From: an uncultured Candidatus Saccharibacteria bacterium
GTDB taxonomy: Bacteria > Patescibacteriota > Minisyncoccia > UBA6257 > GWB1-50-10
Reading direction: 5' to 3'
Length of the DNA: 64,000 bases
Assembly (NCBI GenBank): GCA_964356375.1
Contig: CAYHGT010000001.1
Coordinates: forward strand, 9,221-73,220
Shown here: positions 2,807-61,494 of the stretch, piece after piece
Layout of the letters: the number at the start of each line of letters is the position of its first letter
Numbering within the stretch: position 1 is the first letter of the stretch
The notes under the pieces: generated by a model
Database searches by the model: none
Told to the model about the DNA's origin: nothing
What the model saw: only the letters and a program-made list of their open reading frames with translations
Program-made: the position numbers and the translations under genes

Positions 2807-4522
2807 ATGATAAATCTACCCCCTGAACGACTTAGAGAATTGCTTTTGAAAGCGGGTATTACAACTCCCGATGTGTTTGCATCTATGTTGGATGAAGCAA
2901 AGCGCAAACAGCAGAATGTGAACGATGTGCTCATCTCACAAGGAATCATCAACAAGGAATACTTGCTGATACTTATCGCACAAAATCTCGGTGTGGAGCG
3001 TGTGAATCTTGGCGTGGTAAAGGTGGACGAGGTGGCACTCAATCTCATTCCAGAGGATGTGGCTCGCCGTAAAAAAATTATTGTATTTGGTAAAGAACTT
3101 GACGGGAAATATAAGGTTGCGATGGATGATCCAAGCGATTTGGAAACGATTGATTACTTGAATTTGAAACTTAGCGGGCAGGTGAAGCCGTACCTTGCAA
3201 CCGAAGAAGATTTGAATCGCGGATTCGTGCTTTATGGAGAAAGATTGACACAGGATTTCCAGCAGATTATTGAGACGAGTGTGCGTGAGTCACTTCGCTC
3301 AAAAGCGCGTGGCGATGCAGAGAAGGATGCGCAAGACCTTCCGATTGTCGCAATTGTGGACAATCTTCTCTCCTACGCAATTTCTTCACGCGCATCCGAT
3401 GCGCATTTTGAGGCGTTGGATGATGTGGTACTGGTTCGCTTTCGTATTGATGGCGTGTTACACGAAATAATCAGAATGCCGAAAGAAATTCAAGCAGCGG
3501 TCGTGGCGCGTATTAAAATTCTCTCAAACCTCCGCGTGGACGAACACACGCATCCACAAGATGGTCGTTTTCGTCACAAGATGGGGAGCACGGCGGTAGA
3601 CATCCGCGTATCTATTATTCCAACATTTTATGGCGAGAAGATTGTTATGCGTCTTTTGACCGCTGCGCAAAAACCGCTTTCGCTTGCGGACCTTGGTATT
3701 TATGAGGACGATATTAAATTGTTGGAAAACGCAATCAAGAAAACATACGGCATGGTGCTTGCTGCGGGTCCTACCGGTTCTGGTAAAACGACTACATTGT
3801 ATTCACTTTTGAATATGATGAATAAGCCGGATGTGAATATTATCACGATTGAAGACCCGATTGAATATGATATGCGGTATGTGAACCAGATGCAGGTGAA
3901 TGTAGCTGCTGGTATTACATTTGCATCCGGGCTTCGTTCTATCCTGCGCCAAGATCCAAATGTGATTATGGTGGGTGAAATCCGTGATGCGGAAACCGCG
4001 AACATTGCGGTGCAAGCGGCGCTCACGGGACACGTCGTGCTTTCAAGCTTGCACACGAACGATGCGCCGACCGCAATCCCGCGCTTTATTGATATGGGCG
4101 TACCTCCGTTTCTCGTGTCTGCGGTTTTGAATACCGTTATTGCACAACGTCTTGTGAGAAAAATTCACGTGGAGTGCATTGAATCATATGCCCCACCAAC
4201 CGCATTTCTTGGGGCAATTAAGCATGAGCTGGAGCAGAGCGGTATTGCAGAAGAAAGTGTGAAGGTTCCCAAAACATTTTATCGCGGGAGAGGGTGCGCG
4301 GCATGCGGGCATACTGGATACTTGGGACGACTTGGTATTTATGAGGTGTTAAATATTACGGAAGAGGTGCGTAAACTCATAATTAGCTCTGATTTTAACC
4401 TTGATACATTGCGCCATTTGGCGCGTAGCGAGGGAATGTCCACTATGTTTGAGGACGGTCTCCGCAAGGTTGAGCGTGGCGTTACTACAATTGAAGAGGT
4501 CCTACGCGTTATTAGGGAATAA
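2807..4522 (+). CDS. pilB: Type IV pilus assembly ATPase PilB (GspE family)
   Basis: 571 aa. N-terminal GspE_N-like region, Walker A GPTGSGKTT, Asp/His boxes, and a C-terminal tetracysteine (CIESY...CAACGHTGY). Confidence 0.9.
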   Translation: MINLPPERLRELLLKAGITTPDVFASMLDEAKRKQQNVNDVLISQGIINKEYLLILIAQNLGVERVNLGVVKVDEVALNLIPEDVARRKKIIVFGKELDGKYKVAMDDPSDLETIDYLNLKLSGQVKPYLATEEDLNRGFVLYGERLTQDFQQIIETSVRESLRSKARGDAEKDAQDLPIVAIVDNLLSYAISSRASDAHFEALDDVVLVRFRIDGVLHEIIRMPKEIQAAVVARIKILSNLRVDEHTHPQDGRFRHKMGSTAVDIRVSIIPTFYGEKIVMRLLTAAQKPLSLADLGIYEDDIKLLENAIKKTYGMVLAAGPTGSGKTTTLYSLLNMMNKPDVNIITIEDPIEYDMRYVNQMQVNVAAGITFASGLRSILRQDPNVIMVGEIRDAETANIAVQAALTGHVVLSSLHTNDAPTAIPRFIDMGVPPFLVSAVLNTVIAQRLVRKIHVECIESYAPPTAFLGAIKHELEQSGIAEESVKVPKTFYRGRGCAACGHTGYLGRLGIYEVLNITEEVRKLIISSDFNLDTLRHLARSEGMSTMFEDGLRKVERGVTTIEEVLRVIRE

Positions 4523-4574
4523 AGAGTTTGTCTAAAATTCGAAGCTGAAAGTGAACGAATTTTAGCTACAAAGT

Positions 4575-4680
4575 CTTTACCGAGCACTCAGCATCAAAAA
4601 ATGACATTTTTCGTCCGTTTTCAAGCACGAGCGATTTTTCAAATAATATGAACAGTCGCGTTGAGTGCTCGGTGCTTGAA
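4575..4680. promoter_or_regulatory. Conserved inverted-repeat element, copy 1, in the pilB-pilC intergenic region: CTTTACCGAGCACTCA ... TGAGTGCTCGGTGCTTGAAT
   Basis: Perfect 12-bp inverted repeat ACCGAGCACTCA (4579-4590) / TGAGTGCTCGGT (4663-4674) with a 72-nt spacer. The arms share CTTTACCGAGCAC and GTGCTCGGTGCTYGAWT with copy 2 at 8745-8855. Confidence 0.45.
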
Positions 4681-4736
4681 TGTATGCTAAAATTTATATG
4701 CATGAGTAATCGCAAAAAAATTTTAATACATTCAGC

Positions 4737-5936
4737 ATGAAATTTAGATACATTGCATCACAGGCGGATGGGCGAGTGGTAGAGGGCGACATTGACGTAC
4801 AAAATGTACAAGACGTTTTGTCGTTTTTGGCAAAAAATAATTTAAAGCCAGTCAGTGTAAAATCAAGCGAAGAAGAGAAAGGCGGACTTTTCAAGGGTTC
4901 CATTACGATTACCGACGAAATCTTCCTTACAAAGTATTTAGCGCTAATGCTCCGAATTGGTACGGGTCTCTTGGAGGCAATCAACATTCTTATTGCTGAT
5001 TTCAAAAAGCCCGCAATTCGCGACCTCCTTTTTGAGGTGCGCGCCACACTTGAACAGGGGCAGCCATTTTATTCAGCATTTGCAAAACATCCGAAGGTTT
5101 TTGATGCGGTCTATATAAACCTTGTGCGTGCGGGCGAAGAATCGGGAAATTTAGATAAAATACTCACCGACCTCACAGAGTCGCTTTCCAAGAAAAAAGA
5201 TTTGCAGGATACGGTGCGCGGCGCTTTGATCTATCCGATAATTCTCTTCATCGGTTCGTTCGGCATTCTCTTTTTTCTTGTAATGTTTGCGCTCCCGAAG
5301 GTCGCGAATGTGTTTATGGAGGGAGGGTTCAAAACGCCACCTTTTTCACAAGTAGTGTTTACAGTTGGATTATTTTTCAACAACTATGGATTTTATATTA
5401 TCGGATTTTTTGGACTGCTCGTGGTAACAGCAATCATTCTTCGCGCGCGAGTACCCCTGTTTAGAAAATTTTTGTCCAATGTTTTTGTGAACCTCCCACT
5501 TATAAGCGGAGTATTGAAAAAAATGGCGCTACAGCGATTTGCATCAACATTGGCCGCGCTTATAAAAGCTGGTATGCCACTTACGAGAGCGCTGGATATT
5601 ACAGCTGACGCGGTTGCGCACGCGGAATTACGCGATGCGCTTATAAACATTTCCAAAGAAGGTCTTGCAAAGGGACTCACAATCGGCGAGGCGTTTCGTC
5701 GCGAATCAGCATTCCCGTCCACCATCACAAATCTCGTGGCAATTTCAGAAAAAGCGGGACACTTGGACGAAGTGCTAACAACCGTGAGCGAATTTTATAC
5801 GAAGGAAATTGACGCATCGGTGAAAGAGCTTGTTTCCTTTTTGGAGCCGGCGCTCCTTGTCTTCATCGGTGCTATTGTTGCAGTAATTGCGCTCGCCATC
5901 ATTGTTCCTATTTATCAACTCACTACCCAATTCTAA
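4737..5936 (+). CDS. pilC: Type IV pilus inner-membrane platform protein PilC (GspF family)
   Basis: 399 aa. Two T2SSF-like repeats and three TM segments; downstream of pilB. Confidence 0.9.
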   Translation: MKFRYIASQADGRVVEGDIDVQNVQDVLSFLAKNNLKPVSVKSSEEEKGGLFKGSITITDEIFLTKYLALMLRIGTGLLEAINILIADFKKPAIRDLLFEVRATLEQGQPFYSAFAKHPKVFDAVYINLVRAGEESGNLDKILTDLTESLSKKKDLQDTVRGALIYPIILFIGSFGILFFLVMFALPKVANVFMEGGFKTPPFSQVVFTVGLFFNNYGFYIIGFFGLLVVTAIILRARVPLFRKFLSNVFVNLPLISGVLKKMALQRFASTLAALIKAGMPLTRALDITADAVAHAELRDALINISKEGLAKGLTIGEAFRRESAFPSTITNLVAISEKAGHLDEVLTTVSEFYTKEIDASVKELVSFLEPALLVFIGAIVAVIALAIIVPIYQLTTQF

Positions 5937-5970
5937 AGAATGGAATAATTGAATATTAAAGATTGAAGGA

Positions 5971-6382
5971 TTGAACATTATGAAGATAGAACGATTTGAA
6001 GAATTACCAATTTGGAAAGATGCGCGAATCATTTCTTCGGAAGTATATAAAAAAACAAGGTCATTTAAGGATTTTTCGTTGCGAGATCAGATGAGGAGAG
6101 CAGCCGTTTCCATTGTTTCAAACATTGCCGAAGGGTTTGAGCGTTGGTCAAATAAAGAATTTATTCAATTTCTCTATATTGCGAAAGGATCGGTCGGTGA
6201 ATTGCGTGCGCAATTGTATGTTGCATATGACGCTGAAATTTTTAAGTAACGAGCACTTGATTGCGATGATTAAGCAATGCGAAGAGATTTCGGGTGGAAT
6301 AAGTAAATTTGCTAATTATTTGAGAAAATCACCGATTATCAAGGAAAGATATAATACAAAAGCAAGCTTATTGAACAATTGA
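5971..6382 (+). pseudogene. Four-helix-bundle protein (23S rRNA intervening-sequence-protein family) interrupted by a 1-nt frameshift in a T5 run
   Basis: ORF 5971-6249 (...IAEGFERWSNKEFIQFLYIAKGSVGELRAQLYVAYDAEIFK*) continues in the +1 frame (LSNEHLIAMIKQCEEISGGISKFANYLRKS...). Removing one T from the T5 run at 6239-6243 gives a continuous protein of about 136 aa with family-typical motifs. Confidence 0.5.
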
Positions 6383-6403
6383 AAAATTAAATGATTTAAA
6401 ATT

Positions 6404-7531
6404 ATGAAAAAGAAATTATTCAATCCTTCAATTATTCAATCCTTCAATTTTCGGGGTGGTTTTACAATGCTTGAGCTTGTGATTGTGATAGCGATTACGG
6501 CAGTTCTTTCAACGGTAGGTTTTGTATCGCTTAGCGGGTATCGTGGAAAACAAAATCTTAATAAAACAATGGATGAGTTAGTTGCTGTAATTGTTGGTAC
6601 GCAAAAGCGCTCAATTTCACAGGACACGGGGAAACAATGGAACATAAGATTTTCAAATACCGCGAGCTCTGGAAGCCAATACATAATTTTTTCCGGCTCG
6701 GCATACAGCACGAGTTCAATAGATAGAATATATGGACTTGGACGCGGTGTGCAATTTGCAGAGCCATATTTAAATAGTGCATTTGATGCATTTTTTACGC
6801 CGATAACAGGAACACTCCCTTCAAAGAAAATCATCTCGCTCGTTACAGGTAAAAAAGACGGTCTGGTTGGCGATATTATTTTAAATACCGCGGGTCGCGT
6901 AATTACGCGACTTGAAAGCGGTCTTGTCGGATATTGGCATTTTGATGAAAATGCATCTTCAACGGCACACGATTCGGCGGGTATGGATAATGATGCAATT
7001 CTTTCCGATGGACCTGTGTGGAAGGAGCATAAAAATTGCAGAGAAGGAAATTGCCTAAGCTTTAAGGGCGGAAGCGACCAGGCGGCTACCGCGTCCATAG
7101 ATATCAACGGCAAGCCGGATTTTACAATCAGTGATTGGCAATATATCACAAGCTTATCCTCGGGTAGCTGGGTATTGAATTATACATTTGGAGAAACCTC
7201 ATTTTACTCATATCACGGCGGACAGTTTAGAGTTGTGGACGGGCCATTGGAGTGCCAAGATTCCGGATTCGGCTCAATATCTTCCAGCGAATATCTTAAT
7301 AAGTGGACACACACAGTGTTTGTAAAAACTGGCGATGTTATAAATGTATATGTTAATGGAGTGTTTCGCGCGTTCTGTGTTTCCAAAAACGGAGTGCTGG
7401 CTAATCCGATATTTAAAATAGGAAATATTTTTGTAGGAAGAAACATGATAGGCATTGTTGATGAGGTCCGTATCTACAACCGCGCCCTTTCTGCGACCGA
7501 GATTTTGAATATGTATAATGACTTTAAGTAA
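6404..7531 (+). CDS. Type IV pilin-like protein with a C-terminal LamG/concanavalin-A-like lectin domain (paralog 1)
   Basis: Prepilin signal MKKKLFNPSIIQSFNFRGG|FTMLELVIVIAI. C-terminal LVGYWHFDE...CREGNC...DEVRIYNRALSATEILNMY matches Laminin_G_3-type motifs. Confidence 0.8.
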   Translation: MKKKLFNPSIIQSFNFRGGFTMLELVIVIAITAVLSTVGFVSLSGYRGKQNLNKTMDELVAVIVGTQKRSISQDTGKQWNIRFSNTASSGSQYIIFSGSAYSTSSIDRIYGLGRGVQFAEPYLNSAFDAFFTPITGTLPSKKIISLVTGKKDGLVGDIILNTAGRVITRLESGLVGYWHFDENASSTAHDSAGMDNDAILSDGPVWKEHKNCREGNCLSFKGGSDQAATASIDINGKPDFTISDWQYITSLSSGSWVLNYTFGETSFYSYHGGQFRVVDGPLECQDSGFGSISSSEYLNKWTHTVFVKTGDVINVYVNGVFRAFCVSKNGVLANPIFKIGNIFVGRNMIGIVDEVRIYNRALSATEILNMYNDFK

Positions 7532-7544
7532 GTTATTGAAAATT

Positions 7545-8693
7545 ATGAAAAAGAAATTATTCAATCCTTCAATTATTCAATCCTTCAATTTTCGGGGTGG
7601 TTTTACAATGCTTGAGCTTGTGATTGTGATTGCTATCATGGCTGTTCTTTCTACGGTCGGATTTGTATCGCTTAGCGGGTTTCGTGGTAAACAAAATCTT
7701 AAGAAAACCACGGACGAACTGGTGGCGGCAATCGTGGGAACGCAGAAACGCTCAATCTCACAAGATGCGGGAAGTAGGTGGAATGTACGCTTTTCAAATA
7801 CCACAAGTTCAGGAAGTCAATATATTGTGTTTTCGGGTACGAGTTATGCGACAAGCGCGATTGATAAAATATACGGCCTGAATCGCAATATTCAGTTTTC
7901 AGAACCATATTCCGGCAGTACATCTAATGCGTTTTTTGCTCCATTTACGGGCACGCTCCCCTCAAAAAAAATAATTTCAATGGTAACAGGTCGGCAGGAC
8001 GGATTTGTGGGGGACATTATTATGAATACAGCGGGGCTCGTGACTGGGCGCAATGAGAGTGGTCTTGTGGGATATTGGCATTTGGATGAAAACACATCCA
8101 CAACTGCGTATGACGCGTCTGGTATGGGGAATACTGGCGCTCTTGTGGGCACTTCTACGTGGCAGACGGGAATGAGTTGCGTATCAGGAAGTTGCTTGAG
8201 TTTTAATGGAAGTGGACAATATATAGATTCCGGGGCGAATTCCATTTTGGGTACTAAGCCTTTTACACTCACTGTGTGGATTAATACAAACAGTGTCGCG
8301 GGTTATAGTGGAGCAGTTTCAATTGGAACATCTGCGAGTGGTCAATCAGCATATATCGGAACCGTTGCGGTTGCACAGGTTGGCACGAGCAACTCTATTG
8401 GTGGTGGCTTCTATGGCGCAAATTATGGTTCGGGTATTACCACCACAGGTCAATGGGTTCACGTTGCCATGACATTTGCGGGCGGGTCAAATGGGGCTGC
8501 GATAATTTATGTAAATGGGCAAGTTCTTGTAAATACTACATACACACCGAATTTAGGAAGCGCGGTGAAAAGAATTGGCAGAATCGGGACCGACTCTACG
8601 TACGACTTTAACGGTTCAATTGATGAAGCTCGCATTTACAACCGCGCGCTTTCCGCGACTGAGATTTTGAATATGTATAATGACCTCAAATAA
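7545..8693 (+). CDS. Type IV pilin-like protein with a C-terminal LamG-like domain (paralog 2, tandem duplicate)
   Basis: The track ORF starts at 7518, but the in-frame ATG at 7545 reproduces the identical leader MKKKLFNPSIIQSFNFRGGFTMLELVIVIAI. The 93 bp 7539-7631 are identical to 6397-6489. C-terminus LVGYWHLDE...CVSGSC...DEARIYNRALSATEILNMY. Confidence 0.8.
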   Translation: MKKKLFNPSIIQSFNFRGGFTMLELVIVIAIMAVLSTVGFVSLSGFRGKQNLKKTTDELVAAIVGTQKRSISQDAGSRWNVRFSNTTSSGSQYIVFSGTSYATSAIDKIYGLNRNIQFSEPYSGSTSNAFFAPFTGTLPSKKIISMVTGRQDGFVGDIIMNTAGLVTGRNESGLVGYWHLDENTSTTAYDASGMGNTGALVGTSTWQTGMSCVSGSCLSFNGSGQYIDSGANSILGTKPFTLTVWINTNSVAGYSGAVSIGTSASGQSAYIGTVAVAQVGTSNSIGGGFYGANYGSGITTTGQWVHVAMTFAGGSNGAAIIYVNGQVLVNTTYTPNLGSAVKRIGRIGTDSTYDFNGSIDEARIYNRALSATEILNMYNDLK

Positions 8694-8744
8694 AGGCTTG
8701 GTGTAAATTTGTAAGATGAAATCGCGACAAATTTACGAACCAAA

Positions 8745-8855
8745 CTTTACCGAGCACATAAATTAACACGCAAAGCATTAATCAATTCTCTTATTTATTT
8801 CCGATGAAAAAGAAAAATTATAAACCAAAGTTTTCAATTTATGTGCTCGGTGCTC
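8745..8855. promoter_or_regulatory. Conserved inverted-repeat element, copy 2, spanning the promoter, RBS, start codon and first leader codons of the third pilin-LamG gene
   Basis: Perfect 15-bp inverted repeat ACCGAGCACATAAAT (8749-8763) / ATTTATGTGCTCGGT (8837-8851). The start codon at 8804 lies inside the loop. The flanks CTTTACCGAGCAC and GTGCTCGGTGCTCGATT match copy 1. Confidence 0.45.
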
Positions 8856-10168
8856 GATTCTTTAGCCACGCGCTTCGCGCGTGGAAAGAATCGGCAGGCC
8901 AGTCCCTCGTTGAAATTATTATCGGCCTCGCAATTGGCGCAATTTTGATAGGTGCGTCAGCGCTTGCAATCGCAGCGATGTTGAATTCAAACGTGACGAC
9001 ACAAAAATGGAAGGCGGCAACCGTGCTCTCACAAAGCTTATTAGATAATGCGCGTGCATACGGCTCTGTAAATTGGCAGAATTTGTACGGGCTTACAAAA
9101 ACGTCTAGTACACAATATTTTTTAAACGCTTCAGGAACCACATATAACGTAATTCAGGGGAAGGAGGGAATGGTTGATAATGATGTGACAAACGGCTTAG
9201 TGGGAGAGTGGAAATTTGATGAGGATGCGGGGACGACCAGCACGCTAACGTATGATGCGTCTGGCAATGGCAACAATGGAACACTTGTGGGTAGTCCTAT
9301 TAGAGCAACGTCTACATGTAAAATAGGAAATTGTTTGAAGTTTAATGGTGCGGACAATTATGTGAGCGTCACTAACTCCGCTACGGTAAAAAGCATTTCT
9401 ACTACTGGCACGATTGCGACATGGATTAATTTAACGGTTGCGCCAACAAGCACCAACCTGCAATTGATTGCCGATGTGGATGGCACAGCCAGTTGTACTG
9501 CGAGAGGTATGATATTTTATATTTCAGCTACGCAATTTAAATTTCAGTATGGTAGCGGTGGTGCTTGTCAGAATGCGAGTTCGGTTACCGTGCCAGCCAC
9601 GAATCAATGGTTTCATATAGTTGCGACGTGGGATGGTCTCGCTGGCGCCAAGATGTATGTGAATGGAACATCCGAGGGCAATAATGTTGCGGTGTCAAAT
9701 GTCAGCATTGCGCAAGCGTCCACTTATATTGCCAGTCAGGCGGGTACCACAAGTTTTATAAACGGTCTCGTTGACGATCTTCGTATCTACAATCGCGCGC
9801 TTTCGGCTGACGAAGTGAAACAACTCTACAACGCCAATATTTTCACGCGATATTTCTATGTGGAAAATACGTGTCGCACAAACGATGCATCAAGCTCCAT
9901 TTCCGGTGTTGCTTCCTGCGCGGGAGGTTCGGCTGACGACCCATCAACGCAGAAAGTAAGCGCGGTCTCGCAGTGGGCAGTCCTCGCTGGCACAAATCAG
10001 CTTTCTCTCGCTGATTATATAACGCGATGGAGAAACACAATTTTTCAGCAGAATGACTGGTCTGGTGGCGCAAGCGCAACGGGCACGTATACGAGTCCCA
10101 CAAACCTTTTTTCAACGTCGTCTAACGCAAACACAGCAGGCAAGTCAATTCGCATTCAAGGCCTGTAA
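8804..10168 (+). CDS. Type IV pilin-like protein with a LamG-like domain and an extra C-terminal region (paralog 3)
   Basis: Long leader then ESAG|QSLVEIIIGLAIGAIL (G-1, E+5). LVGEWKFDE...CKIGNC...DDLRIYNRALSADEVKQLY. 454 aa. Confidence 0.75.
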   Translation: MKKKNYKPKFSIYVLGARFFSHALRAWKESAGQSLVEIIIGLAIGAILIGASALAIAAMLNSNVTTQKWKAATVLSQSLLDNARAYGSVNWQNLYGLTKTSSTQYFLNASGTTYNVIQGKEGMVDNDVTNGLVGEWKFDEDAGTTSTLTYDASGNGNNGTLVGSPIRATSTCKIGNCLKFNGADNYVSVTNSATVKSISTTGTIATWINLTVAPTSTNLQLIADVDGTASCTARGMIFYISATQFKFQYGSGGACQNASSVTVPATNQWFHIVATWDGLAGAKMYVNGTSEGNNVAVSNVSIAQASTYIASQAGTTSFINGLVDDLRIYNRALSADEVKQLYNANIFTRYFYVENTCRTNDASSSISGVASCAGGSADDPSTQKVSAVSQWAVLAGTNQLSLADYITRWRNTIFQQNDWSGGASATGTYTSPTNLFSTSSNANTAGKSIRIQGL

Positions 10169-10727: not shown

Positions 10728-13079
10728 ATGGTTTATTTAATAATCTTTTTAACATTCTTTTTCACCTTTCTTTTTGGCATCCTCGCATTTTTTGTGTGGC
10801 GAAAAAAGATACGCGAATTATTGAAGAATAGTTTGGAAATGAAGCTTTTCCTTGTGCGTATGCCACACATGAATAAGGAGGGTAAGGATTTGAAAAAAGA
10901 AATAAGTATTTCCGAACAATTTTTGAGTGCCTTAGCATCGCTCGGGGGTCCCTTCGCGCTTGAAGTTGCCGTCCCACACATTGGCGAGGAAATCCATTTT
11001 TATGTGGCGGTTCCCGGCAAATCACGCGAATCAATCGTGCGTCAGATTCACGCATTGTGGGCTGATGCGAGTGTGAGCGAGGTAGACGACTACAATATTT
11101 TTAACTACACGGGCGTGGTCGCGGGTATTTCTATTCGCCAAAAAGAGAAATCAATCCTTCCAATTCGCACGTATCAGGAATTGGAGGCGGATTCGTTTTT
11201 GCCGGTACTTGGTGGATTTTCAAAAATAAACGAGGTGGGTGAGGGTTGCGCGATCCAGTATGTGGCGCGTCCCGCATCTTCCAAGGAGAAAAAAAATATT
11301 CAATATGCGGTAGACCTCTTGAAAAAAGGCGTAAAAGCAAAGGACGTATTTGGCGGTACATGGCTTGTGCTTAAAGATTTTGATGAAGCGCTTGGTGCGG
11401 GAAAGAAAAAAGAAACGGAAGAAAAAATAGTAGACGAGGGGGCCTTGGAAGCATTGAAGGCAAAAGTGGGAAAACAACTTTTTGATGTGAATGTGCGTGT
11501 AATTGCGTCAGCCCCGAGTCAGTTTCAAGCAGACGCTATTATTGATGGAGTAATTGCTGGCTTTTCGCAATTCTCGGCACCAGAGCGCAATGAATTTAAA
11601 ATTGTGAAGCCGAGAAAACTTCAGGATTTTATACATTCATTTTCATACCGCGACTTCAATGAGTCCGAAGCGATGTTAATGAATACGGAAGAATTTGCGA
11701 GTATCTTTCATTTTCCGACGCCGTTTACAGATGTGCCGAGAATTAAGTATCTGAAATCGCGCGAGGCGCCCCCGCCATCCGACCTACCAAAGGAGGGAAT
11801 CTTGCTTGGCGAAAGTATTTATAGAGGAACTCATATTCCTGTGCGGCTTACGCGCGAGGACAGGCGAAGACACTTGTATGTAATCGGTCAGACGGGTACT
11901 GGTAAGTCCGTATTTATCAATAATTTGTCGGGTCAGGATGTCGTTAATGGCGAAGGAGTATGTGTAATTGACCCGAATGGAGATCTTTTTGAAGATGTAC
12001 TGAGTCGTATTCCCAAAAACAGATTAAATGATGTGATTGTGTTTGACCCGAGTGATGTCTTGCATCCCTTGGGCATCAATATGCTGGAATATGATCTAAA
12101 CTTCCCGGAGCAGAAAACATTCCTCATAAATGAACTGATGCAGATTTTTGACACGCTCTATGACCTGAAGACCACGGGTGGTCCAATGTTTGAGCAGTAT
12201 ACGCGCAACGCTCTTCTTCTATTGATGGATGACCCCACAAACGGATTTACTATTCTTGAAATTCCGCGTGTGATGTCGGATGTAGAATTTCGAGAAGCGC
12301 TTCTTGCAAAATGCAAAAACGCAATTGCGAAAGATTTTTGGGAGAAGGAGGCGAATAAGGCGGGAGGGGATGCGTCACTTGCAAACATGGTTCCGTATAT
12401 TACGTCCAAGTTCAATACATTTATTGCAAATGATTTTATGCGCCCCATCGTCGCGCAATCAAAAAGTTCCATTGATTTTAGAAAAGTGATGGATGAGGGC
12501 AAGATTCTTTTGGTGAACCTCTCAAAGGGAAAGCTTGGCGAATTAAATGCGTCGTTACTCGGCATGATAATTGTGGGTAAGCTTACGATTGCCGCGTTCT
12601 CGCGCGCGGATATGGCACCCGAAAAGCGCAGGGATTTCTATCTCTATATGGATGAGTTCCAGAATTTCACAACACCAAGTATCTCCACGATTCTTTCTGA
12701 GGCAAGAAAATACCGACTATGTATTATTGCCGCACATCAGTTTATTGCGCAGTTAAAGGAGCCGATTCGTAATGCGATATTTGGCAATGTGGGCTCGCTT
12801 GTGGCATTTCGCGTAGGTGCTGATGACGCGGAGTTTTTGGAAAAGCAATTTACGCCCGTATTTTCCGAAAGCGATCTTATTAACATTGATAATTTAAATG
12901 CACACGTAAAAATTGCCATTAATAATCAGGTTTATCCGGCGTTCAATATGTTTGTACCGTTTCCGCCAAAGGGCGATAGAACCACTGTGGACGAGGCACA
13001 CGCGCTTTCCAGGCAGAAATATGGGCGCCCACGCGAAGACGTTGAGGCCGAAATTTATAAGCGAATAAAGGCGGTCTAA
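10728..13079 (+). CDS. Membrane-anchored P-loop ATPase of the FtsK/HerA/TraG-VirD4 (T4SS coupling-protein-like, DNA-translocase) superfamily
   Basis: 783 aa. N-terminal TM helix (LIIFLTFFFTFLFGILAFFVW). Walker A HLYVIGQTGTGKSVF. Walker-B-like FYLYMDEFQNF (the DEF motif seen in FtsK/TraG families). Downstream RLCIIAAHQ. Family assignment is from motifs only. Confidence 0.55.
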   Translation: MVYLIIFLTFFFTFLFGILAFFVWRKKIRELLKNSLEMKLFLVRMPHMNKEGKDLKKEISISEQFLSALASLGGPFALEVAVPHIGEEIHFYVAVPGKSRESIVRQIHALWADASVSEVDDYNIFNYTGVVAGISIRQKEKSILPIRTYQELEADSFLPVLGGFSKINEVGEGCAIQYVARPASSKEKKNIQYAVDLLKKGVKAKDVFGGTWLVLKDFDEALGAGKKKETEEKIVDEGALEALKAKVGKQLFDVNVRVIASAPSQFQADAIIDGVIAGFSQFSAPERNEFKIVKPRKLQDFIHSFSYRDFNESEAMLMNTEEFASIFHFPTPFTDVPRIKYLKSREAPPPSDLPKEGILLGESIYRGTHIPVRLTREDRRRHLYVIGQTGTGKSVFINNLSGQDVVNGEGVCVIDPNGDLFEDVLSRIPKNRLNDVIVFDPSDVLHPLGINMLEYDLNFPEQKTFLINELMQIFDTLYDLKTTGGPMFEQYTRNALLLLMDDPTNGFTILEIPRVMSDVEFREALLAKCKNAIAKDFWEKEANKAGGDASLANMVPYITSKFNTFIANDFMRPIVAQSKSSIDFRKVMDEGKILLVNLSKGKLGELNASLLGMIIVGKLTIAAFSRADMAPEKRRDFYLYMDEFQNFTTPSISTILSEARKYRLCIIAAHQFIAQLKEPIRNAIFGNVGSLVAFRVGADDAEFLEKQFTPVFSESDLINIDNLNAHVKIAINNQVYPAFNMFVPFPPKGDRTTVDEAHALSRQKYGRPREDVEAEIYKRIKAV

Positions 13080-25375: not shown

Positions 25376-25528
25376 TGAATCCCGTTAGAGTTTTACACAT
25401 TAACAACAAACAAGAGGGATGAATCCCGTTAGAAAATTACAAACAATGTTTTTAAGTAAATACAAAGTTAATAACGCTTATATTATTAGTCGAAAAACAA
25501 AGACCTTAATTTTCTAACGGGATGAATC
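25376..25528 (+). promoter_or_regulatory. Repeat/hairpin element between rpsF and ssb: two direct copies of ATGAATCCCGTTAGA and one inverted copy that contains the ssb start codon
   Basis: Copy a at 25376-25397, copy b at 25419-25440, inverted copy c at 25507-25528. b and c can pair over 20/22 bp with a 66-nt loop. The ssb ATG (25522) lies inside arm c. Confidence 0.45.
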
Positions 25529-32005: not shown

Positions 32006-32463
32006 TACCACATTTCTACAGTAATATTATTGCAACTGGTTCTCATCACATTGAACTATATGATGGGTGTGTGAGGTATCGGCCGGTACTCTCACGTATC
32101 AGGATTGTGGCGAGGTATGATGTTGGGCTAGCGTATACGTTTTTAAAACAGAGGTAGGTTGTGTGGACGACTGACAACGCAATATTTTCGGATTTCAAGT
32201 TGTTCTTTCTTTAATTATTTTCACTTGAAATCATACGAATGCGTAGTATCAGTGGTTCACAACACCCCTCTGTTTTATTACGTCTAGAGAGGAGCGAAAT
32301 AAAAACGTATTCGTTTTCATTTAGTCCGAACGACGACGGAACAAAAGTATTGAATCACGCGGGTTGCCCAACGATTCAATACTTTTTATTTTGTCTAGAA
32401 TTTTTTGACAAAATGTCGCAACAAGTGCATTCTGTTTTTAGTAACTACCAAAAGGAGGACACT

Positions 32464-59234: not shown

Positions 59235-59426
59235 GGAGATGGCTCTCTTCTTGCCTTTCGGAACCAGAATATTTTTCTGTTGAAAAATTCCTGCCTACCG
59301 GCAGGCAGGTCTTCCCCCTCAGCCACCTTCGTGGCTTGTGGGATGTTCCTCAAGGCAAGAAGAGCGCCAAGCGTGGAGTGAGGGGTGAAGAGGGTGAGGC
59401 TCGCTTCAACAGAAATTTTATAATAC

Positions 59427-61149: not shown

Positions 61150-61159
61150 TCCACATCAA

Positions 61160-61190
61160 AACACCCCCGCGTTGCGGGGGTGTTTTGTAT
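61160..61190 (+). terminator. Strong rho-independent terminator after rplL
   Basis: AACACCCCCGC-GTT-GCGGGGGTGTT followed by TTGTATTT. Confidence 0.8.
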
Positions 61191-61335
61191 TTCTGTTCTC
61201 GCTCGTTTTCTCCGCCACCGGATGTCGCTTTGCTCCTGCGGCAAAGCGCATCGCTACCCTCTCGGCGAAAAAATCCTTCGGATGCCAAGCTTTTTCACCT
61301 CCGAGAGTTGTCGGAAAAAACGAGCGAGAACAGAA
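61191..61335. repeat. 145-bp element bounded by 19-bp perfect terminal inverted repeats (MITE-like, or a structured small RNA) upstream of tRNA-Val
   Basis: TTCTGTTCTCGCTCGTTTT (61191-61209) and AAAACGAGCGAGAACAGAA (61317-61335). Nested internal hairpins GCTTTGC/GCAAAGC (61227-61247) and CTCTCGG/CCGAGAG (61257-61304). Confidence 0.45.
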
Positions 61336-61417
61336 ATGAATGGTGATTGGGTGAAGCCAAGCAGATAAGAAAGACACAATTGCCTTTTTGCACTCCGACT
61401 GCTATAAATATTCCTAT

Positions 61418-61494
61418 GGGCAATTAGCTCAGCTGGTTAGAGCGTTGCATTCACATTGCAAAGGTCACTGGTTCGAGTCCAGTATTGCCCACCA
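61418..61494 (+). tRNA. tRNA-Val (anticodon CAC), CCA encoded
   Basis: GGGCAAT TA GCTC AGCTGGTTA GAGC G TTGCA TTCACAT TGCAA AGGTC ACTGG TTCGAGT CCAGT ATTGCCC A CCA. All stems pair. Confidence 0.85.

Follow-up and report, generated by a model that had tools for sequence, protein, structure and literature searches.

Putative three-hairpin intercistronic elements in operons of Patescibacteria and the apparent capture of one copy as a prepilin leader

The type IV pilus operon considered here lies on the forward strand of a 64,000-nucleotide (nt) stretch of DNA from an uncultured Candidatus Saccharibacteria bacterium (contig CAYHGT010000001.1; hereafter the window, with coordinates counted from its first base) and includes pilB, pilC, and three genes encoding pilins with LamG domains. 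The third of these (8804..10168, + strand) encodes a product of 454 amino acids (aa; Laminin_G_3, E = 1e-24), and this exact product was called on 10 contigs. Its start codon lies between the two 16-nt arms of a perfect inverted repeat, ACCGAGCACATAAATT (8749-8764) and AATTTATGTGCTCGGT (8836-8851), which are 71 nt apart; the ATG at 8804 follows the left arm by 39 nt and precedes the right arm by 29 nt. Upstream of this ATG, GTAAATTTGT (8703-8712) and ACAAATTTAC (8727-8736) form a perfect 10-bp hairpin. A gapped pattern built on the arms of the inverted repeat (ACCGAGCAC-N60-90-GTGCTCGGT) occurred twice in the window versus never in 100 shuffles, and the second occurrence lies between the stop codon of pilB (4522) and the start codon of pilC (4737), a copy to which an initial annotation of this DNA had already referred. 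That annotation was also correct in locating the pilin start codon in the loop of the repeat and the right arm within coding sequence, although the arm is 16 nt long, one longer than noted, and spans codons 11/12-16, (S)IYVLG, of the pilin open reading frame (ORF). The repeat had further been described as enclosing a ribosome-binding site together with the start and first leader codons; the codons are enclosed, but no recognizable Shine-Dalgarno (SD) sequence precedes ATG 8804 and that part of the description does not hold. The genome is SD-poor, with an SD-like 4-mer of any kind at 9 of 45 starts. The 10-bp hairpin is real, but its right arm had been placed one base too far downstream (8728-8737), and it is not the additional structure that it was taken for.

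Rather, the hairpin and the inverted repeat are modules P1 and P2 of a single three-hairpin element of ~205 nt (copy 2; 8694..8896, + strand; fold z = -7.0), the architecture of which recurs in copy 1 and among 116 unique metagenomic instances described below. Copy 2 begins at the base that follows the TAA stop codon of the second pilin-LamG gene (8691..8693, + strand). P1 (8695..8748) comprises an outer stem (8699-8702/8739-8742), the 10-bp stem, and an apical mini-stem (GAU-GAA-AUC), whereas P2 (8749..8851) comprises the perfect 16-bp stem around the A/U-rich 71-nt interior in which ATG 8804 lies. The predicted unpaired probability is ~0.3-0.5 for this ATG and 0.02 for the arms. P3 (8852..8895) is formed by stems 8855-8863/8885-8893 and 8866-8873/8877-8884 and encodes leader residues A17-A31. 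All three hairpins are given on the + strand.

Copy 1 (4523..4736, + strand; fold z = -6.1), between pilB and pilC, is likewise composed of P1 (4523-4578), P2 (4579-4673), and P3 (4674-4736). Its P2 has a 14-bp stem (4579-4592/4660-4673) and the same 9-nt cores as copy 2 (4579-4587 / 4665-4673), within an inverted repeat that spans 4579-4589 / 4663-4673. In both copies P1 begins at the first base past the upstream stop codon and folds into an outer stem of 4-5 bp, a 2-nt bulge, a 10-bp stem, an internal loop, and a GAA-capped 3-bp mini-stem, and P2 is a long-range stem (ACCGAGCAC.../...GUGCUCGGU) around 70-85 nt that directly abuts P1 and P3. The P1 stems of the two copies differ at five positions, each of which is compensated. 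The last base of P3 immediately precedes the pilC ATG in copy 1, whereas P3 of copy 2 lies within the leader-peptide codons; the downstream start lies past P3 in the former and inside P2 in the latter. A search for the end motifs identified no further copies in the window.

Metagenomes scanned with the pattern TTACCGAGCAC-N60-90-GTGCTCGGTGC yielded matches on at least 120 contigs, which derive from ~45 data sets covering groundwater, aquifers, and sediment; the counts given here and below refer to the matches listed. Among 116 unique instances, 114 share the P1/P3 layout, and the remaining two (L153 and L176) are chance hits in GC-rich coding sequence and were rejected as family members. The common layout can be written as [TAA] A(A)GGGCTTkGT - variable hairpin - ACmAAACC TTT ACCGAGCAC - stem extension - variable interior - GTGCTCGGT GCTCAAttttGT - variable hairpin - ACaaaaTTGGC [ATG], and the family is defined by abutting P1, P2, and P3 with junctions ..AAACCTTT-ACC...GGT-GCTCAA.. 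that extend from an upstream stop to a downstream start. Both window copies fit this definition and can be aligned with 47 other members, copy 2 departing from the family pattern solely at its 3' end (GGCAGG rather than GGCATG). An upstream co-directional ORF has its stop directly against the element in 95 of the 116 instances, with the junction TAAGGGCTT in 24 copies and TAAAGGGCT in 23. The 3' end is exactly TTGGCATG in 46 of 116 and a close variant ending in GCATG in ~65, the ATG being the start of a co-directional downstream ORF, and the orientation is sense in all copies. The downstream genes are overwhelmingly core operon genes, encoding ribosomal proteins (L2, L3, L6, L11, L13, L15, L17, L22, L24, L27, L35, S4, S6, S7, S8, S11, S13, S14, S18, and S19) as well as SecY, EF-G, GroEL, DnaJ, SSB, MraZ, FtsE/Z/A, MreB, aminoacyl-tRNA synthetases, and PilB/PilC/PilT.

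Bystander elements on the same contigs carry other compensated P2 cores (ACCCAGCAC/GTGCTGGGT, ACCCCCTCC/GGAGGGGGT, and AACCCCCACAC/GTGTGGGGGT), and the scanned core therefore marks one subfamily only. In some of these, P2 is only 41-59 nt long, with 20-40 nt between the arms. A single 11-kb contig (L117) holds three full copies and a truncated fourth at its edge. No copy was present in the other loci examined (~964 kb, including the Paceibacterota relatives L001-L005), the viral contigs scanned gave 0 matches, and no long-cargo or autonomous version between the same arms was seen in the fetched loci. At gathering thresholds, an Rfam cmscan of the whole window returned only two tRNAs, and a scan of 4400-9100 at E<=10 returned only spurious hits of the miRNA/snoRNA type that were far below threshold. 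A literature search on the core sequence and on intergenic, palindromic, or intercistronic elements of Patescibacteria (Candidate Phyla Radiation, CPR) found no description of this family. Collectively, these observations indicate that the three-hairpin intercistronic element represents a large and apparently undescribed family in the operons of Patescibacteria.

To evaluate the structure, 49 members with <80% pairwise identity were aligned (alignment A1) and the P1-P2-P3 structure was derived by vote over single-sequence folds. Paired cells made up 91.8% of the total, versus 74.6% in shuffled alignments (0 of 500 shuffles reached the observed value) and 31-45% when partners were slid by 1-3 columns. 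Changes on both sides were observed in 46 of 62 pairs (423 cells versus 129 in shuffles), including 14 of 18 pairs in P1, and the P2 stem extension covaries across the 49 sequences. The P2 stems are 14-20 bp long, perfect at the base, and very stable. Strands paired better with their own partners than with strands of other copies for both P1 (p = 1e-5) and P3 (p = 5e-26). These results indicate that the structure of the element is under selection, with its three helices evidently maintained by compensatory changes. Two alternative structures were rejected: helices between P1 and P3 that could close the element or act as a coupling switch lack covariation (own -3.7/-3.9 versus cross -3.7/-3.9 kcal/mol), and a pseudoknot-like alternative helix inside P3 was weakly supported in one subtype only.

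The element also contains a reading frame. When the right arm is read as x-TGC-TCG-GTG (Cys-Ser-Val-Leu; the family frame), the frame stays open through the arm for a median of 43 codons, as opposed to 22-24 in the other two frames, and ATG-initiated ORFs of at least 30 codons are present in 59 of 115 elements, compared to 4 and 14 in the other frames. The open part upstream of the arm has a median of 22 codons, versus 9 when the interior is reverse-complemented (p = 1.4e-6). In 66 of 93 elements the first stop past the arm falls within -4 to +20 nt of the downstream ATG, compared to 24 and 17 for the other frames, and the long short ORFs (sORFs) leave a median stop-to-start gap of 9 nt, with ATGA overlaps in three, copy 1 included. 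The sORF of copy 1 (MNSRVECSVLECMLKFICMSNRKKILIHSA; 30 codons; 4648..4740, + strand) crosses the right arm and P3 and ends in an ATGA overlap of its TGA with the pilC ATG at 4737; the 12 nt before that ATG are almost wholly paired in P3 (unpaired probability of 0.04). Related sORFs show no codon periodicity (92/82/110 substitutions at positions 1/2/3), the sORF has no Pfam hit, and homologs of both the sORF and the pilin leader were absent from the protein collection searched. Because of this lack of codon periodicity and of Pfam or database relatives, it is translatability and end position that appear to be conserved, not the peptide. The initial annotation had already argued that conservation is at the nucleotide level, and the arm is indeed read in different frames in the two copies, as YVLG in the pilin and as ECSVL in the copy 1 sORF.

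In copy 2, the element encodes a prepilin leader (M1-G32, MKKKNYKPKFSIYVLGARFFSHALRAWKESAG; 8804..8899, + strand), with the mature pilin beginning at Q33 (8900). The pilin ORF starts in the P2 interior, reads the right arm in frame 0 (YVLG) rather than in the family frame, encounters no stop through P3, and joins the mature pilin at Gly32-Gln33 (8897-8902), with the family's terminal ATG position reading AGG (8896-8898). The junction, ...KESAG32 followed by QSLVEIIIGLAIG, has the form expected of a prepilin leader, which ends in Gly before a hydrophobic (F/Q)xxxE segment, and the Pfam N_methyl model aligns over residues 29-52 with 18.2 bits, below the Pfam cut-off of 21.2 bits. Orthologs of the mature part of the pilin are encoded in L065 and L001-L006. 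Of the available relatives, L065 is the closest (97% and 90% amino-acid identity in PilB and PilC, respectively) and has copy 1, with P1 and P3 87% conserved and P2 interiors only 65% alike, but it is without copy 2: the TAA of its second pilin gene is followed by TGAATT as a 6-nt spacer and then by ATG, and its pilin has a plain leader of 16 residues (MRNIIKKFLNNNSRDG ahead of QSLVEIIIGLAIG, with the mature start QSLVE). Relative to L065, copy 2 thus replaces the native spacer, the start codon, and the 16-residue leader. Since L065 has copy 1, no copy 2, and an ordinary leader, we interpret copy 2 as a recently acquired insertion with its internal frame fused to the pilin. By the same comparison, the start codon and the whole 32-residue leader would be derived from the element, and the hairpin at the pilin start would be inherited with it rather than evolved for control of the pilin. 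A GTG in the right arm (8843) may serve as an alternative pilin start.

A second, unrelated pilin of the FTLTEL type, encoded directly after pilC in L150, has the same arrangement, with the leader IYVLGARFFSHSLRSWKKSAG ahead of FTLTEL. P3 of copy 2 and P3 of L150 are 87% identical and the leader tails are nearly so. Coding capture in a leader was observed in these 2 of the 116 instances. Insertion of hairpin elements seems to be readily tolerated in the cleaved prepilin leader.

Comparisons among relatives point to gain, loss, and exchange of modules. Copy 1 is absent from L001-L005 and L007, in which the pilB-pilC spacers are 2 to ~50 nt; between these genes in L004 lies an inverted repeat with 26-nt arms set 75 nt apart (L004:2322-2448). 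In L116 and L117, the DNA of which is ~78% identical, elements occupy different junctions of the same ribosomal-protein operon, and the empty junctions measure 2-7 nt. No target-site duplication was detected at the L116/L117 or L065/window junctions (TAA-element-ATG), where the ~78-85% identity could have erased small ones. Loci with similar P1/P3 may carry unrelated P2 interiors, and P2 interiors can be 92-98% identical between loci of one metagenome that differ in P1/P3. Three pairs of paralogous loci share an interior in reversed orientation: L156 versus L165 (0.98 as reverse complement, 0.67 forward), L076 versus L156 (0.95/0.66), and L106 versus L113 (0.87/0.71). These patterns suggest that P2 behaves as a partly separate module.

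We infer the function of the element from these patterns, with a translational relay, RNA processing, and selfish DNA as the candidates. The reading that we favor, and regard as probable though well short of assured, is that of a CPR three-hairpin intercistronic element inserted in sense orientation from stop to start, which relays ribosomes by means of its internal frame and of which copy 2 has become fused to a pilin. Under this reading, the element would be present or former mobile (or copy-pasted) DNA, the surviving copies of which have been shaped by the needs of the mRNA. It would be tolerated in essential, SD-poor operons because it is transcribed through and holds no terminator. Ribosomes on the internal frame would melt P3, which otherwise buries the 12 nt before the next start, and termination beside that start would lead to translation of the downstream gene by termination-reinitiation. 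Copy 2 would have inserted into the 5' end of the third pilin gene in place of the native 16-residue leader, and its internal frame, read in a different register, would have been joined to the mature pilin sequence at Gly(-1). No terminator-like sites were found in 4523-4736 or 8694-8900, whereas a canonical terminator follows the major pilin gene of the same genome (2718-2735). The P2 of copy 2 contains no promoter consensus, and that of copy 1 contains one weak match (4618-4647). An mRNA-level role is suggested by the strict sense orientation, the features of the frame, and the lack of terminator-like sites. Two regulatory mechanisms put forward in the initial annotation fared less well: sequestration of the initiation region by an mRNA hairpin is at odds with a start codon that is unpaired in an A/U-rich loop and with the lack of an SD to hide, and a DNA operator overlapping a promoter is at odds with the absence of promoter-like and terminator-like sites from 8694-8900.

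A bolder version of the relay, which we regard as speculative and on balance unlikely, is that the element is a domesticated cassette of SD-poor, ultra-small bacteria, a portable spacer that insulates cistrons and hands ribosomes to the next start by its own short frame. Such a relay would be tuned or switched gene by gene through the fast-evolving P2 interior, which can be swapped and is sometimes inverted, and the cassette could be co-opted wholesale as a secretion or prepilin leader.

Several observations weigh against a ribosome relay. About half of the copies are without a long ATG-initiated sORF, and the start of the sORF is not clearly more accessible than the downstream start (0.46 versus 0.43). 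Co-transcription, translation of the sORF, and reinitiation are each putative steps that we infer from sequence. Base pairing shows no sense-strand G-U bias (86 G-U versus 81 A-C in P2), and P3 is more stable as the antisense strand. The hairpin loops are mirrored, with CGAAG in 37 of 111 P1 (CTTCG in 3) and CTTCG in 21 of 88 P3 (CGAAG in 0), and these mirror types of P1 and P3 point to symmetry at the DNA level. As 43 of 45 long ORFs in the window are on the + strand, gene orientation is not separable from replication orientation. No target duplication, autonomous partner, or transposase was seen in the inspected loci, which were not scanned systematically for transposases or recombinases. 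Lastly, unrelated inverted repeats (15-33 nt arms) surround the start of the third pilin gene (pil3) in L001-L004 and L006 (5 of 7 relatives), and this recurrence may reflect some selection for a hairpin at that position.

Two other general functions for the element were considered, and we judge both to be improbable to about the same degree. In the first, the element would punctuate the transcript, P2 being an RNase III site and the cut leaving protective hairpins (P1 at the 3' end, P3 at the 5' end) that set the stability of each cistron. The length, perfect base, and stability of the P2 stems would suit such a nuclease, P1 and P3 adjoin both P2 and the flanking codons, and the elements are located in long, highly expressed operons. 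The pilus operon also contains a 23S_rRNA_IVP gene with a 39-nt inverted repeat. Intervening inserts in 23S rRNA are cut by RNase III. However, a cut at the base of P2 would sever the internal frame from its start, and in copy 2 the start of the pilin from its body; processing also leaves unexplained why a single frame is open and closes beside the downstream ATG, and P2 is only 41-59 nt in some members. Alternatively, the element may be purely selfish DNA of the MITE or REPIN type, possibly mobilized as single-stranded DNA, in which case the hairpins would serve as signals for transposition and lack a function in RNA, and the observed positions and frames would reflect the survivors of selection in a gene-dense genome. 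This is consistent with presence/absence differences among relatives, with P2 interiors that are nearly identical, or reversed, across loci with different P1/P3, with the mirrored loops and the lack of G-U bias, with the lack of target duplications, and with a gene-strand bias that could itself yield the bias in orientation. Yet the many compensatory differences within one genome argue for selection on structure over a long time and against recent bursts, the open frame and the placement of its stop are specific to one frame of the sense strand, and the element directly adjoins an ATG in most copies. Moreover, no long-cargo version was found in the fetched loci, and no transposase partner was seen in the window or inspected loci, although families of transposases were not scanned for systematically.

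Explanations that are specific to the pilin locus are more doubtful still. That the long-range stem is a dedicated riboregulator of a minor pilin, gating initiation as a thermosensor or as the target of a helicase or other protein, was the sense of the initial annotation and seems to us quite improbable. It would account for a very stable stem that encloses a start codon, for the unrelated inverted repeats that enclose or touch the pil3 start in L001-L004 and L006, and for the importance that local structure should have for initiation where SD sequences are lacking. However, the same arms and three-hairpin layout recur before more than 100 unrelated genes (among them those for ribosomal proteins, GroEL, EF-G, FtsZ, and SecY), the element is missing from the closest relative, orthologous pilin genes are without the arm, the AUG and its flanks are in the loop and not the stem, and the downstream start is placed differently in copies 1 and 2. 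Least plausible of all, in our estimation, is phase variation by an inverton in which the P2 arms are recombination sites and a flip of the 71-nt interior removes the pilin start, even though perfect inverted repeats flank the start codon and P2 interiors of opposite orientation are found among paralogous loci. Copy 2 shows neither a base difference nor a change of orientation among 7 contigs from at least 5 samples (consensus assemblies, in which a minority orientation is invisible), including a contig from Hainich groundwater (ERZ1292616, H52, 0.1 um filtrate) that is 100% identical to the window over 13.4 kb, and 0 of ~9 same-locus pairs in the data set are inverted. No recombinase was noticed in the inspected gene calls (13 genes on L184; no such scan was made of the window ORFs). 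In addition, the internal frame depends on orientation, the arms of some members are separated by just 20-40 nt, and 71 nt is far shorter than known invertible segments such as those of the Fim, Hin, and Mpi systems. The ribosome relay, with copy 2 as a fusion to the pilin, remains the reading that we prefer.

Other repeats and genes in the neighborhood merit description. The 23S_rRNA_IVP gene of the pilus operon (PF05635, E = 1e-28; 5980-6246, with an in-frame TAA at 6247) lies within 5936-6451 and is flanked by a 39-nt, 74% inverted repeat (5959-5997 / 6413-6451) of TTCAATC-type tandem repeats. The right arm of this repeat encodes the leader of the first pilin (KLFNPSIIQSFNF), and the whole insert is absent from L065; 5936-6451 is, as judged from these features, an rRNA-type intervening-sequence element inside a protein operon. 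The first and second pilin-LamG genes (6385-8693) are a tandem duplication (300 nt at 84%, the first 25 nt identical, including ATGAAAAAGAAA) that is represented by a single copy in relatives including L065, and the second copy in the window kept the right-arm repeat but not the left. A 1-nt deletion at L187:190-210 (equivalent to window ~8488) truncates the second pilin-LamG gene (gggcgggtaaaatg versus gggcgggtcaaatg) and reflects an error of assembly or else natural frameshift variation in the duplicated pilin. Directly downstream of the pilins is the gene for a 783-aa homolog of VirD4/TraG-like coupling ATPases (DUF87, T4SS-DNA_transf, TrwB_AAD_bind; 10728-13079), which is conserved there in all relatives, an unusual partner for a type IV pilus cluster that may be linked to DNA uptake. 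About seven GGTATAC heptamers (2008-2060, partly palindromic) precede the major pilin gene (2114-2686) by ~50 nt and could constitute a slippage-prone or protein-binding tract in its promoter region.

At the pil2-pil3 junctions of L001-L006, at L162:11125-11260, and in L104, unrelated inverted repeats or tandem 7-8-mers (AACTGATA, AATGACAAA, ATTTTCA, TTCAATC, and AAACAAGAAAAC) extend across the upstream region and leader codons of the orthologous pilin. Inverted-repeat pairs of some of these heptamers are also present in other CPR contigs and suggest that there is a second hairpin-element family. Elsewhere in the window, a 29-nt, 93% inverted repeat (61189-61217 / 61309-61337) with 91 structured nt inside directly follows a perfect hairpin of 14 bp that is rich in G+C (61157-61187). 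This region (61157-61337; fold z = -8.7) is ~80 nt upstream of a tRNA (61418-61491), matches no Rfam family at the gathering threshold, and may encode an unannotated small RNA. Other long-range inverted repeats with 39-94 nt spacers have 36-nt arms at 25418/25493 (25418-25528) and 25-nt arms at 59240/59345 (59240-59369), and 32132-32386 contains 20-nt arms (32144/32258) together with a perfect 14-bp hairpin (32343-32386). The P1/P3 junction motifs of the three-hairpin element are absent from the inverted repeats at 61189, 59240, 32144, and 25418. Stop codons in the window are predominantly TAA (37 of 45), and the organism is a CPR bacterium of the Paceibacterota type.

Genomes of Patescibacteria are tiny and gene-dense, with SD sites mostly lacking, which raises the question of how relative expression is set inside their long operons. 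The element may represent a new way to couple translation across a structured spacer or, alternatively, an unusually well-adapted selfish element that is able to live in essential operons. It would also illustrate clearly how a repeat element can give rise to a new protein N-terminus, here a prepilin leader. For annotation, this implies that pilin starts and leaders can be derived from elements and that gaps of 200 nt in otherwise tight operons are not empty.

Among known systems, invertible promoters and intragenic invertons resemble the element in having inverted repeats around a short segment with an expression signal, near pilus genes, but they differ in that no orientation polymorphism was seen at this locus, no recombinase was noticed, and the segment is several-fold shorter. 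Integron attC sites were rejected as a candidate, since the arms ACCGAGCAC/GTGCTCGGT are not of the RYYYAAC/GTTRRRY type and the neighbors are ribosomal and other core genes. Like MITEs, the element is multi-copy and variably present (2 copies in the 64-kb window and at least 120 contigs overall). Its P2 arms are perfect inverted repeats at an internal position, and its true ends (AAGGGCTT.. / ..TTGGCATG) are only loosely symmetric. Elements of the REP/BIME/REPIN class are likewise hairpin-forming extragenic repeats in operons that persist vertically with local turnover, and the two inverted units around a spacer in a REPIN are comparable to the mirror-type P1 and P3 around P2. In contrast, REP sequences are 20-40 nt, are not tied to starts, contain no frame, and are mobilized by RAYT, of which none was seen here (64 kb of genome). 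Nor do the hairpins begin with a REP/REPIN head tag: P1 begins with GGGCTT, P2 with ACC, and P3 with GCTCAA, and GTAG was counted in 21 of 111 P1 regions but never at the hairpin head (CGTC was not counted).

Intervening sequences of 23S rRNA (S23p/23S_rRNA_IVP) are also inserts whose flanking inverted repeats pair into a long stem once transcribed, and the PF05635 example in the same pilus operon has a right arm that encodes a pilin leader. These belong to another repeat family with heptamer-type arms and protein cargo, however, and the classic examples are located in rRNA and excised by RNase III. Rickettsia palindromic elements resemble copy 2 and the L150 element in that an in-frame insertion becomes part of a protein, but they occur within the mature regions of many genes, whereas here the insertion is in a cleaved leader, this is the exception, and the normal site is intercistronic. 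ERIC/IRU elements of enterobacteria and Correia (NEMIS/CREE) elements of Neisseria are also multi-copy imperfect palindromes of ~100-200 nt that are intergenic, co-transcribed with their neighbors, and subject to turnover among strains, and they can alter the processing, stability, or translation of flanking mRNA. They occur in both orientations, have terminal inverted repeats (with a TA duplication in Correia elements), and are nearly identical across copies in a genome, unlike the CPR element, which is found in sense only, fits exactly from stop to start, and has three abutting helices that have diverged by compensation and a frame that ends at the next start. This last feature is shared with translational coupling at overlapping or neighboring stop and start codons (ATGA and TAATG) and with the unmasking of a structured start by a uORF (e.g., the MS2 coat-replicase pair and ermC-type leaders), in that the frame ends -4 to +20 nt from a start that is base-paired on its 5' side. 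Unlike in those systems, the frame that would couple translation here belongs to a portable, repeated cassette and not to the upstream gene.

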